Source of the DNA: Escherichia coli
Lineage (GTDB): Bacteria > Pseudomonadota > Gammaproteobacteria > Enterobacterales > Enterobacteriaceae
DNA: 64,000 nucleotides
Assembly (NCBI RefSeq): GCF_036507355.1
Contig: NZ_AP027877.1
Direction: 5' to 3' (one strand)
Part shown: positions 4,885 through 39,824 of the stretch, piece by piece
Layout of the letters: the number at the start of each line of letters is the position of its first letter
Numbering within the stretch: the first letter of the stretch is position 1
Notes under the pieces: generated by a model
Databases searched by the model: none
Told to the model about the DNA's origin: nothing
What the model saw: only the letters and a program-made list of their open reading frames with translations
Made by a program: the position numbers and the translations under genes

Positions 4885-4918
4885 GCCAAAAAGCAAAACG
4901 CCCGCATATGCGGGCGTT
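4885..4918 (-). terminator. intrinsic terminator downstream of uspA
   Basis: Perfect palindrome AACGCCCGCATATGCGGGCGTT followed on the minus strand by a T-rich run (TTTTGCTTTTT). Confidence 0.75.
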
Positions 4919-4942: not shown

Positions 4943-5377
4943 TTATTCTTCTTCGTCGCGCAGCGGAACAATCAGCATATCAACGTGAACGGTGTTGATC
5001 AGCTGACGTGCGGAAGACATCAGTTTGCTCCAGAAGTCCTGGTGGTGACCACAAACCACTAGATCCATATCGTATTTCTTGATTGCATCGACCAGAACCT
5101 GGCCCAGGTCGCCGCTGCCGCTCAGGGTTTCAGTGATTGGGTAGCCTGCATTAGTGGAAAGCTCGGTCAGCGCATGATGTGTCTCTTCAGAGATGCGTTT
5201 CTGCATATCACCAAGATTCACATCAATAAGCCCGGTATATAGGTCAGAGTAGTTTACATCTACGTGGATCAGAGAAACTTTCGCATTGTATGGGCGAGCC
5301 ATAGAGACTGCTTTCTCTACCAGAACTTTGCTTTCCGGGGAGAGATCGACCGCGATGAGAATGTGTTTATAAGCCAT
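4943..5377 (-). CDS. uspA: universal stress protein A
   Basis: 144-aa [19 protein letters not shown]..., Usp domain. Confidence 0.95.
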
Positions 5378-36454: not shown

Positions 36455-36565
36455 TGTTACCCTAACCCTCTCCCCAGAGGGGCGAGGGGACCGATCGCAC
36501 TCAATGTTGCTGCTTGAAACCGGTACGTAGGACGGATAAGGCGTTCACGCCGCATCCGGCAAGCA
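36455..36565. repeat. REP-type intergenic palindromic repeats
   Basis: CCCTCTCCCCAGAGGGGCGAGGGGA palindromic unit followed by GTAGGACGGATAAGGCGTTCACGCCGCATCCGGCA, a typical REP. Confidence 0.6.
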
Positions 36566-36584
36566 AGTGTAATGGAATACACAA

Positions 36585-36893
36585 ATGGATTATTTAATTC
36601 CTGTTTGCCTGGGATTGCTGGGATTGTTCGCGATGCTCGCCCCCAATTGGCTGATGCCTGTTTTAATCGCCGTGGGGGGATGGCTGGGGGTACTTGCCTG
36701 TGGTTGGCTCTGGCTAATGCTATTTTTACCTTTACTCAACGGCGTCGGGCTTGCTTATGCCCTGTGGTTGATGTTCAAAAGGCCATCATTCACGTCCCGC
36801 TTGGTTGCTACATGTTGTGTTATCTCCGTCATTCTGATGTTAGCGCTTTATTATGCTTTCCTGACCATGCCGCCGTTCCCGCCTCAGCACTAA
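36585..36893 (+). CDS. hypothetical small hydrophobic protein (unconfirmed ORF)
   Basis: 102-aa open frame, almost entirely hydrophobic (2-3 predicted TM helices); no obvious SD; lies between the REP and the zntA stop. Confidence 0.3.
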   Translation: MDYLIPVCLGLLGLFAMLAPNWLMPVLIAVGGWLGVLACGWLWLMLFLPLLNGVGLAYALWLMFKRPSFTSRLVATCCVISVILMLALYYAFLTMPPFPPQH

Positions 36894-36925
36894 GCCTGAT
36901 AGCCAGAGGCTATCAGGCAACACCT

Positions 36926-39124
36926 TTACTTCCTGCGCAACAACCTTAACGCATTCGCCGTCACCAGCACCGTCGCACCCGTATCTGCCAGCACCGCCAG
37001 CCACAGTCCGGTCATCCCCAACAGCGTCGTGACGAGGAAGATCCCTTTCAGCCCCAGTGCAATAGTGATGTTCTGACGGATATTAGCGTGAGTGGCGCGC
37101 GCCAGTTCAACCATTTGCACCAGACCGCGCAGGTGGTTATGGGTTAATGCCGCGTCGGCGGTTTCCAGTGCGACGTCTGTGCCGCTACCCATTGCAATCC
37201 CAATGGCGGCAGCTTTCATCGCTGGCGCGTCGTTAATACCGTCCCCGACCATCGCCAGCGGCGCATGTTGATTCAGCTCGGTCACCGCTTTAACTTTATC
37301 TTCCGGCAACAGGCCCGCTTTAAATTCCAGCCCCAGTTCCCCGGCGATTGCCGCCGCGGCGCGTGGATTATCGCCGGTGAGGATCACTCCTTTGACGCCC
37401 AGCGCGTTCAGTTCACTGATGGCAGTTGCAGCATCGGCGCGCAGAGTATCCTGCAATGCAATGATACCCAGCACGTCATCGTTACGTACTACCAGCACTA
37501 CCGTTTGCCCGGCGCTTTCCAGCTCGTTAATTAAACCAGCAAATGCATCAGCGGGATGTTTCCCGGCAGCGCATATCAACACGCGCTCACCGTTAACCTG
37601 TGCTTCAATGCCAGACCCGACCAGCGCCCGCTGTGATTCGGCGGCGGGAATGGCGAGTGCAGCAACCTGTGCTTCGCGCACGATGGCCTGCGCCAGTGGA
37701 TGCGTCGCGCCTTGCTCGACCGCCGCCGCCAGTGTCAGCAGTTCAGATTCACTAATACCCGTTGCCGGATGAATCGCGGTAACGCGCGGTTTACCGACGG
37801 TCAGCGTACCGGTTTTATCAAACGCCACTTGGGTAACACGACCTAGCTGCTCCAGCGCCGCACCGCCTTTAATTAACGCCCCACGACGTGCCGCTGCTGC
37901 CAGCCCGGAGGTAATCGCCGCGGGCGTGGAGATAACTAACGCACACGGGCAGCCAATCAGCAGCAGCGTCAGCCCTTTATAAATCCACTCTTGCCAGCTG
38001 GCGGCAAACAGCAGCGGCGGCACCAGCGTTACCAGCAGGGCGACGGCCATAATCGCTGGCGTATAAATACGGCTGAAACGGTCGATAAACCGCTCAATGG
38101 GGGCGCGGCGCTCTTCGGCTTCTTCGATCAGTTTCAGAATCCGGTCAATGGCGCTGGCACCCGGTTCTGACAGCACTTCCAGCGTTACCAGACGGTCTAC
38201 GCTGGTGGCTCCTGCAGGAACTTTATCGCCCGTTGCGCGCTCCACCGGAATGGATTCGCCGGTCAGGGCGCTTTCATCAAAACTGGCAAAGGGCGAGAGC
38301 AGTTTACCGTCGGCAGGCAAACGCCCGCCCGCCGCAACTTCAATCACATCGCCAGGCCGCAGGCTGTTAATCGCCACCTCTTCCCGCTCACCGTTACGCA
38401 GGCGCGTGGCGGTTTCTGGTTTCAGCGCCATTAACGCGCTAACGCCCTGACGCGCGCGGCTGGCGGCCCAGCCTTCCAGTCGTTCACCAATCAAAAACAG
38501 CAGCAACACCATCGCAGCTTCAGCCGTTGCGCCAATAAACAGCGCACCAATAGCAGCTACGCTCATTAACGTTTCAATGGCGAAGTAACTGCCTGATTTG
38601 ATCAGCCGTAATGCCTGACGAGCAATCGGGTACAGCCCAACCAGCGTGGTCGCGATAAACGCCAGTTGCCCGAACGGATGATTGAACTGCTCCAGACCCC
38701 AGCTGATTACCATCATCACGATAAGCGTAATCAGCGACAAATTCTCTTTCAGGCGTGATGTTTGCGGTTCTTCGGCGGACTGTTCATCGCGCAGGGAATA
38801 GCCCGCTTTTTGCACCGCAGATTCAACTTGTGCACGGATGTCATTGTCGGCATCAACCACCAGTTTTTCGGTGGCGAACAGTACCTGCACCTGATTCACG
38901 CCTGCAAGCTGGCGCACGGCATTTTCTACCTTGCGCGCACAGGCGGCGCAGTCCATGCCGCTGACTTTCCAGCTATAGCGGGTGCCGGAGACGTTTTCAG
39001 AGAGCGTTGGCGTGCTGGAACATGCGCCGTCGCAGCAACAGTCGTTGGCGTTCTGTACCGTGGTTAGCGGTTTGAACGCAGCAAATTGAGGGGCTTTCTT
39101 GCCGTGATTGTCAGGAGTCGACAT
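36926..39124 (-). CDS. zntA: Zn/Cd/Pb-exporting P-type ATPase
   Basis: 732-aa ORF with N-terminal metal-binding GMDCAAC, CPC transmembrane motif and DKTGTLT phosphorylation motif. Confidence 0.95.
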   Translation of the reverse strand: MSTPDNHGKKAPQFAAFKPLTTVQNANDCCCDGACSSTPTLSENVSGTRYSWKVSGMDCAACARKVENAVRQLAGVNQVQVLFATEKLVVDADNDIRAQVESAVQKAGYSLRDEQSAEEPQTSRLKENLSLITLIVMMVISWGLEQFNHPFGQLAFIATTLVGLYPIARQALRLIKSGSYFAIETLMSVAAIGALFIGATAEAAMVLLLFLIGERLEGWAASRARQGVSALMALKPETATRLRNGEREEVAINSLRPGDVIEVAAGGRLPADGKLLSPFASFDESALTGESIPVERATGDKVPAGATSVDRLVTLEVLSEPGASAIDRILKLIEEAEERRAPIERFIDRFSRIYTPAIMAVALLVTLVPPLLFAASWQEWIYKGLTLLLIGCPCALVISTPAAITSGLAAAARRGALIKGGAALEQLGRVTQVAFDKTGTLTVGKPRVTAIHPATGISESELLTLAAAVEQGATHPLAQAIVREAQVAALAIPAAESQRALVGSGIEAQVNGERVLICAAGKHPADAFAGLINELESAGQTVVLVVRNDDVLGIIALQDTLRADAATAISELNALGVKGVILTGDNPRAAAAIAGELGLEFKAGLLPEDKVKAVTELNQHAPLAMVGDGINDAPAMKAAAIGIAMGSGTDVALETADAALTHNHLRGLVQMVELARATHANIRQNITIALGLKGIFLVTTLLGMTGLWLAVLADTGATVLVTANALRLLRRK

Positions 39125-39165
39125 GGCATCCTCCGGTTAAGTTTTTTCTCATTAACCGAAGGATA

Positions 39166-39187
39166 CACTCTGGAGTCGACTCCAGAG
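39166..39187 (-). promoter_or_regulatory. ZntR (MerR-family) operator within the zntA promoter spacer
   Basis: Perfect 22-bp palindrome ACTCTGGAGTCGACTCCAGAGT located between a TTGACT -35 and the -10, consistent with a long-spacer MerR-type promoter. Confidence 0.85.
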
Positions 39188-39197
39188 TCAAGTTTTA

Positions 39198-39824
39198 TCA
39201 GAGATACAGCGAGCGGACGATGAGGAAGTGACCGGCAAAGTAGCAGGCCGCAGCAATCGCGTTATCCGCACGGAAGCGTCGGCGATAGTGGCTACCCAGC
39301 CAGACAAAGTTACTGATAAACAGCAACGAAGCGCCGACAAACGCAGAGAGTGCCGGAGCGGTCGGACGGAAGAACCACAGTTCACCTGCCAGCCACACCA
39401 TCACCAGCGTCATGCCGATAAACGTGCAGATGGGCCAACGATACTCTTCCAGCCGCGTCCAGATAATCGCCAGTAACAGCGCGCCCAGAACCAGCAACAC
39501 CAGTGGTAGAGGCCAGAAGAAAGAGAGCGTCATCTGACTGGCGAAATAGATGGTGTACAGCAGGTGCGAGAGGAAAAACGCGCCGATGGCGTACATCAGA
39601 CGTTGACGTGGCAACAGGGTTAGCGCATCGCCCAGCAGTGAGGCGCACAGCCCTGCCAGCACCAGATAGCTAATGGCGTCGAACATCGGCGCTTGCCAGG
39701 CCAGTAACAACAGGAGAAGAAGGGTTAACGGTTTAAACACCCAGCGTTGCCAGGTTGGCCCACGATACGATGCATCCACAGATAGCCATGCGGAAAGACA
39801 GACAGCGATAAACGACCAAAGCAT
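39198..39824 (-). CDS. yhhN: YhhN-family inner-membrane protein
   Basis: 208-aa polytopic membrane ORF. Confidence 0.85.

Follow-up and report, generated by a model that had tools for sequence, protein, structure and literature searches.

The zntA promoter of Escherichia coli: a ZntR-type promoter with a 20-bp spacer and an adjoining predicted RNA hairpin

Introduction

Several metal-responsive promoters controlled by regulators of the MerR family have been described, among them PmerT/MerR (Tn501, Tn21), PcopA/CueR and PpbrA/PbrR. The ZntR-dependent promoter of zntA (PzntA) resembles them in its over-long spacer and in a dyad placed over the spacer and the -35 hexamer, and shares with them a near-consensus -35, a weak -10 and a mode of activation in which the DNA is distorted and contact with RNA polymerase is not required. 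The long spacer is required by MerR-family promoters, which are activated through distortion of the DNA, and its shortening abolishes regulation (PMC9909328). Loss of regulation or constitutive expression upon shortening, and underwinding of the DNA upon effector binding, have been reported for MerR, PbrR and the family at large. All 28 of 28 experimentally confirmed MerR-family promoters have spacers of 19-20 bp (PMC7722741); those of PmerT, PcopA and PpbrA are 19 bp long, versus 20 bp in PzntA (PMC3431237). Partial overlap of the -35 by the operator has been presented as the usual layout in this family, and the combination of a near-consensus -35 with a weak -10 as its characteristic pattern (bioRxiv 10.64898/2025.12.02.691827).

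A zinc-responsive zntA promoter with a ZntR operator is already known in E. coli. Deletion of zntR in strain K-12 is reported to result in loss of zinc induction. The K-12 system was characterized by Brocklehurst et al. (1999) and Outten et al. (1999), and PMC3431237, citing these two studies, describes DNase I protection by ZntR over the -35, the spacer and the -10, similar to that given by MerR and CueR. The addition of zinc changes the effect of ZntR on PzntA from ~2-fold repression to ~10-fold activation, while occupancy of the operator remains unchanged (PMC9189660).

A different kind of control is exerted in IS10 by a stem that has its 5' arm ahead of the element's own transcription start site and its 3' arm over the ribosome binding site, and that forms only in externally initiated RNA. 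This fold-back inhibition of read-through transcripts in IS10/Tn10 was reportedly described by Davis, Simons and Kleckner in 1985.

Here we compare with these systems the zntA locus found in a 64,000-nt stretch of E. coli DNA (NCBI RefSeq assembly GCF_036507355.1, contig NZ_AP027877.1), referred to below as the window.

Results

Organization of the yhhN-zntA locus

The zntA gene (36926-39124, minus strand), recognized from its open reading frame and translation, encodes a 732-aa P1B-type ATPase exporting Zn, Cd and Pb. Its identity was established by a full-length profile search, in which residues 1-732 matched NCBIfam NF033775 with 1445.6 bits against a cutoff of 1240. The co-directional gene yhhN (39198-39824, minus strand) encodes a 208-aa protein of the YhhN family, annotated as a lysoplasmalogenase in RefSeq, which matched Pfam PF07947 in a profile search (E = 4.3e-47). 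The two minus-strand genes are separated by a gap of 73 bp (39125-39197), bounded by the TGA stop codon of yhhN (39200-39198) and the ATG start codon of zntA (39124-39122). It was exactly this intergenic region that the initial annotation had put forward as a MerR-type zntA promoter, and both the name of the gene and the strand assigned to it proved correct.

The yhhN-zntA junction with an annotated zntA was found in 5,425 of 5,426 complete E. coli genomes, and the gene order yhhN-zntA-tusA is common to the window and K-12. The window differs from K-12 in a cluster of repeats of ~400 bp (~36510-36931) located between the stop codon of zntA and tusA, which is absent from K-12 at the same position. 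This stretch belongs to a dispersed repeat family, which occupies a median of 33 sites in an E. coli genome. The full repeat arrangement following zntA is present in only 316 genomes, where it is annotated as 'hypothetical protein'.

Anatomy of the promoter

The elements of the promoter were read directly off the minus strand. The -35 hexamer TTGACT (39191-39186) is separated from the yhhN stop codon by 6 nt (TAAAAC) and is followed, by exact count, by a spacer of 20 nt (39166-39185) and the -10 hexamer TATCCT (39165-39160). An inverted-repeat search with exact matching identified the ZntR operator at 39167-39188 (a dyad assigned to neither strand) as ACTCTGGAG-TCGA-CTCCAGAGT; the 22-mer ACTCTGGAGTCGACTCCAGAGT is an ungapped, perfect 11+11 inverted repeat. 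It occurs as a single copy in the window, and with up to 3 mismatches allowed no second copy was detected either in the window or in 100 shuffled sequences. The dyad begins 9 nt past the yhhN stop codon, takes in the final three bases of the -35 (ACT) and leaves 1 nt free before the -10.

Placing the transcription start 7 nt past the -10, according to standard sigma-70 geometry, gives an inferred +1 at 39153 (minus strand). With the start at ~39153, the leader would be 29 nt long and the center of the dyad, between 39178 and 39177, would lie at approximately -24.5. The Shine-Dalgarno sequence GGAGG (39130-39134, minus strand) is located 5 nt 5' of the zntA ATG and is conserved as CCGGAGG among enterobacterial orthologues.

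The -35 matches the consensus at 5 of 6 positions and the -10 matches TATAAT at 4 of 6, i.e., the former is near-consensus and the latter weak. The sequence characteristics of a MerR-type promoter were present: a spacer of 19-20 bp, a dyad in the spacer that overlaps the -35, and a near-consensus -35 combined with a weak -10. A scan for sigma-70 promoters with spacers of 16-18 nt returned no promoter at this site; since only these spacer lengths were allowed, such an outcome is expected for this class of promoters and does not constitute counter-evidence.

Thus, the -35 and -10 hexamers upstream of zntA, the perfect 22-bp dyad and a spacer length falling, on exact counting, within the 19-20 bp range of the family all bear out the initial annotation. 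Its placement of the dyad in the spacer needs a small amendment: the dyad does fill the spacer, but it also extends by 3 nt into the -35. The MerR-type reading, based on a long spacer with a dyad, is supported, and the sequence is the same as that of the characterized K-12 promoter.

Two other sequences in the window have a similar appearance. The first is a copy of the operator center and right arm with one mismatch (GTCGACTCCTGA), which spans codons 1-5 of zntA (39111-39122). The half-site GTCGACTCCAGA at the start codon was found in exact form in 10 of 24 enterobacterial leaders. It was rejected as a functional site, since the third codon positions vary freely while the encoded peptide MSTP(D/E) is conserved; the copy looks like a by-product of this conserved N-terminus. 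The second, AACGCCCGCATATGCGGGCGTT (4897-4918), is a perfect palindrome of 22 bp, the sole one in the window besides the operator; on the minus strand it is followed by GTTTTGCTTTTT and lies ~25 nt past the stop codon of a gene for a 144-aa protein (4943-5377, minus strand). By these features it is an ordinary intrinsic terminator, in contrast to the zntA dyad and the second hairpin described below.

Conservation of the promoter and expectation by chance

The yhhN-zntA intergenic region, comprising the promoter and the leader, is 100% identical to that of K-12 MG1655 (NC_000913.3), so that no difference exists between the two promoters. In a 131-nt alignment with the K-12 MG1655 sequence a single difference was found, located inside yhhN. 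The longer yhhM-zntA region is 96.9% identical to K-12, with the flanking coding DNA diverged by ~3%. On the scale of the species, 5,354 of the 5,425 E. coli genomes share a 106-nt promoter stretch at 99% identity or more, while the surrounding 1.3 kb reaches at least 99% identity in just 9 of them. The near-invariance of the 106 nt beside a diverging 1.3 kb indicates that the promoter is more constrained than its flanks.

Promoters of more distant zntA genes were located by homology to the ZntA protein. A search with ZntA against protein sequences returned almost exclusively Escherichia and Citrobacter and was left out of the comparison, whereas a scan of contigs with ZntA yielded five close orthologues, the other matches being dominated by the generic P-type ATPase motif MVGDGIND. 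The geometry of a -35, 20 nt and TAnnnT, with the dyad in register, was observed in the zntA promoters of Citrobacter, Enterobacter, Photorhabdus and Vibrio. The -10 hexamers at 20 nt are TATCCT in Citrobacter, CATACT in Enterobacter, TAGAGT in Photorhabdus and TACACT in Vibrio; together with TATGCT and TAGGAT, these make up the variants found at this position in the orthologues. The dyad itself is unchanged in Citrobacter, Enterobacter, Kosakonia and Kluyvera, and in Vibrio it carries symmetric double changes affecting both arms (ACCTTGGAG...CTCCAAGGT).

These data also bear on the possibility that the dyad is a chance palindrome beside fortuitous hexamers, with no regulatory role. A perfect palindrome with a half-length of at least 11, considered alone, is not an extreme event, as one arose somewhere in the 64 kb in 6 of 200 first-order Markov simulations (~3%). 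However, the combined architecture, TTGAC[AT]-N20-TAnnnT with an embedded palindrome, was observed once in the window and in 0 of 100 simulations. Moreover, the sequence is near-invariant among E. coli genomes whose flanks diverge, and the architecture persists out to Vibrio, where both arms have changed symmetrically. The absence of the full architecture from the simulations, together with the conservation of the sequence, excludes a chance origin.

Length of the spacer

Published descriptions of PzntA do not agree on the length of its spacer. A TTGACT -35 with a 20-bp spacer is given in PMC3431237 and the same length in PMC7911910, whereas PMC9189660 gives 19 bp. The question was addressed by scanning metagenome contigs with the pattern TTGACYYTGGAGTNNNCTCCARRGT, which stops at the end of the dyad and leaves the -10 unconstrained. 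The scan returned 121 instances of the operator pattern, 100 of them unique. A hexamer with A at its second and T at its sixth position was present 20 nt past the -35 in 92 of the 100 unique operators, compared to 1 of 100 at 19 nt and 1 of 100 at 21 nt.

The 19-bp reading was rejected: the -10 would then have to be GTATCC, a hexamer without the essential A2 and T6, and a valid hexamer occurs at 19 nt in only 1 of 100 cases. The comparative register data point to 20 bp, not 19, for PzntA. Judged from these 100 unique environmental instances, the 20-bp spacer holds for the whole ACYYTGGAG-N4-CTCCARRGT class, and the inconsistency in the literature is resolved. The settled value should be useful for builders of ZntR-based biosensors.

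A promoter with a 19-nt spacer, found at one of the other loci, serves for comparison. This CadR/PbrR-like operator (L008, 2523-2553) reads TTGACC-19 nt-CAGTAT with the dyad ACCCTGTAG-TTG-CTACAGGGT. As in PzntA, the 9-nt arms start with AC within the -35 and the operator is located upstream of a gene for a ZntA-like ATPase. The differences concern the arm core (CTGTAG versus CTGGAG in PzntA), the dyad center (3 versus 4 nt) and the spacer (19 versus 20 nt). The extra base in the PzntA spacer matches the extra base in the dyad center, and, judging by this one comparison, spacer and center may vary in length together.

The regulator of zntA

Taken together, this region is almost certainly PzntA, the ZntR-dependent promoter for the zinc/cadmium/lead efflux ATPase gene zntA of E. 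coli. The following account of its operation relies on the literature for ZntR binding, zinc induction and DNA distortion. A separation of 20 bp, 3 bp above the sigma-70 optimum, would place the -35 and -10 out of phase and keep basal transcription low. A ZntR dimer would occupy the 22-bp dyad, which fills the spacer and overlaps the -35, and in its metal-free form would keep the promoter off or mildly repress it. Upon binding of Zn(II), Cd(II) or Pb(II), ZntR would kink and underwind the operator center, and this distortion would realign the -35 and -10, allowing formation of the open complex by RNA polymerase and transcription of zntA.

No ZntR homologue was found in the 64-kb window (best tblastn E = 3.3), and no MerR-family gene is present there. 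In K-12, zntR (3.4387-3.4391 Mb) and zntA (3.6065 Mb) lie ~167 kb apart. Given this distance, zntR would not be expected to fall in the window, and its product acts in trans; we presume that this genome carries zntR, as E. coli generally does. By contrast, in mer, pbr and cad the regulator gene as a rule lies alongside and is transcribed divergently, an arrangement also seen in several distant loci with ZntA homologues. In the PDB, ZntR is represented only by residues 43-141, without the DNA-binding domain, and no structure of ZntR with its operator was found; the nearest DNA-bound relatives in this database are CueR and CadR.

The operator might instead serve mainly another MerR-family paralogue, e.g., a CadR/PbrR-like or CueR-like protein. 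In environmental bacteria, the same degenerate operator precedes many MerR-family genes whose products are 28-49% identical to ZntR, a variety that shows the motif not to be confined to E. coli ZntR. However, in E. coli ZntR is the sole regulator reported for zntA (PMC9189660), the window contains no gene for such a paralogue, and the CadR/PbrR-type operator of L008 departs from that of PzntA in its arm sequence, center (3 nt) and spacer (19 nt). Control of this promoter chiefly by a paralogue is extremely improbable, and we retain ZntR as its regulator.

The linkage of operator and regulator differs among the loci that were inspected. Many distant ZntA-homologue loci have an adjoining MerR-family gene; a scan for the promoter architecture at such loci with divergent MerR genes, using criteria that were too strict, recovered 1 of 14. 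Most of the environmental ACYYTGGAG-N4-CTCCARRGT operators (L082-L201) are located 45-90 nt 5' of a MerR-family gene on the same strand. From the sequences, this placement suggests an autoregulated operon with the regulator gene first, unlike the situation in E. coli, where zntR is unlinked.

The operator dyad as an RNA element

The end of yhhN lies close to the promoter not only in E. coli. In all yhhN-zntA loci except one, the 3' end of yhhN is situated 6-32 nt 5' of the -35; the exception is L201, in which the match to yhhN stops 185 nt upstream of the -35. Such proximity raises the question of whether the dyad could chiefly be an RNA element of yhhN, either a terminator or a hairpin stabilizing the 3' end of the transcript. 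A terminator scan called 39167-39188 as a stem of 9 pairs, a stable hairpin, with a second one alongside, is predicted for the dyad in read-through RNA, and yhhN otherwise has no terminator ahead of zntA.

The T-run on which the call depends (CAAGTTTTAT) is, however, on the plus strand, antisense to both genes. On the sense strand the sequence after the stem of the dyad is GTGTATCCTTCGG, which contains no U-tract, and on this ground termination was rejected as the primary role of the dyad. Furthermore, the dyad keeps a fixed register with the -35 and -10 in 92 of 100 unique operators, mostly with no gene end just upstream, and binding of ZntR to the identical sequence has been published (PMC3431237). 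We regard a primarily RNA-level function of the dyad as very unlikely and its role as the ZntR operator as the proper reading, although it may have a secondary RNA role in yhhN transcripts.

A predicted second hairpin pairing the -10 region with the Shine-Dalgarno sequence

A further inverted repeat (I1), referred to here as hairpin 2, adjoins the operator. Its left arm GTATCCTTCGGTTAA (39152-39166, minus strand) covers the -10 hexamer and reaches the inferred +1, and its right arm TTAACCGGAGGATGC (39126-39140, minus strand), recognized also by RNA folding, includes the Shine-Dalgarno sequence of zntA. As the left arm ends at the inferred +1, the complete stem would be possible only in RNA reading through from yhhN. 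With only 6 nt between the yhhN stop codon and the -35, and no terminator between the genes, read-through transcripts would fold this stem.

The predicted folds differed markedly between the two kinds of transcript. Read-through RNA containing the 3' end of yhhN formed two adjacent hairpins, those of the operator and hairpin 2, with -40.8 kcal/mol (z = -6.07), and the hairpin 2 region folded separately gave -20.9 kcal/mol (z = -7.0). In RNA beginning at the inferred +1 no significant structure was predicted (z = 0.19). The mean unpaired probability from the Shine-Dalgarno sequence to the AUG was 0.12 in the read-through RNA versus 0.59 in the RNA from the inferred +1. Among the 56 gene starts of the window, zntA ranked first both for hairpin z (-6.5, compared to -3.0 for the next gene) and for the gain in accessibility (0.46).

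A stem of this kind was found in 21 of 21 yhhN-zntA leaders (among L003, L007 and L089-L201), with z values from -2.3 to -8.2. Six zntA leaders without yhhN gave z values of +0.4 to -1.8, and their accessibility was equal in long and short RNA; the leaders with and without yhhN represent clades and not independent samples. In Pantoea-like loci (Erwiniaceae) the stems are unrelated in sequence, being GGATAAGGGATGAAC/GTTCATCCCTTATCC in L165 and CAGTAACGGGCG/CGCCCGTTACTG in L125. Covariation among 17 alignable leaders was weak (2 of 14 pairs), which can be attributed to the nature of the arms, a promoter element on one side and the Shine-Dalgarno sequence on the other.

On the sense strand hairpin 2 is followed by CATGTCGAC, with no U-tract, and it does not have the form of an intrinsic terminator. 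No matching family was found in Rfam, where the search gave one sub-threshold chance match to a miRNA, and a literature search found no paper describing hairpin 2 of zntA.

We considered whether hairpin 2 goes with every zntA promoter that has an adjacent, co-directional gene upstream, and dropped this idea because two Vibrio-type loci, L005 and L179, have such a gene and no hairpin. In these loci (at ~2260 in L005 and ~8793 in L179) a co-directional ORF of ~500 aa terminates at the -35 or within it, the TGA of the L005 ORF falling within TTGACC. Both promoters are thus packed against the upstream gene more tightly than in E. coli.

Discussion

The main outcome of this analysis is confirmatory: the strand and identity of zntA are fixed, and its promoter is intact and identical to the reference. 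Nothing about this promoter is unusual apart from the adjoining RNA hairpin.

Tentatively, and by analogy with IS10, hairpin 2 might be a promoter-embedded anti-Shine-Dalgarno element that insulates translation of zntA from yhhN read-through by fold-back. A yhhN read-through transcript would fold the 15-bp stem and hide the Shine-Dalgarno sequence of zntA, whereas the ZntR-activated transcript would start within the left arm, leaving the Shine-Dalgarno sequence open. The resemblance to the IS10 fold-back lies in the 5' arm being upstream of the inferred transcription start site, the 3' arm covering the ribosome binding site, and a pairing predicted to be stable only in externally initiated RNA, which would then be translationally silent. 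Unlike in IS10, the gene that would be protected is a chromosomal metal exporter, and the 5' arm is the promoter's own -10. As part of the same tentative proposal, Enterobacteriaceae and Erwiniaceae would have reached the same structure with unrelated stem sequences. The main alternative is that hairpin 2 plays a role in the formation or stability of the yhhN 3' end.

If fold-back insulation of zntA is real, it would add a second layer of control and explain how a metal exporter can be tightly controlled although its promoter directly abuts the end of a neighboring gene. The zinc exporter would then be strictly ZntR-controlled despite the co-directional gene upstream, and hairpin 2 would represent a chromosomal analogue of the IS10 fold-back.
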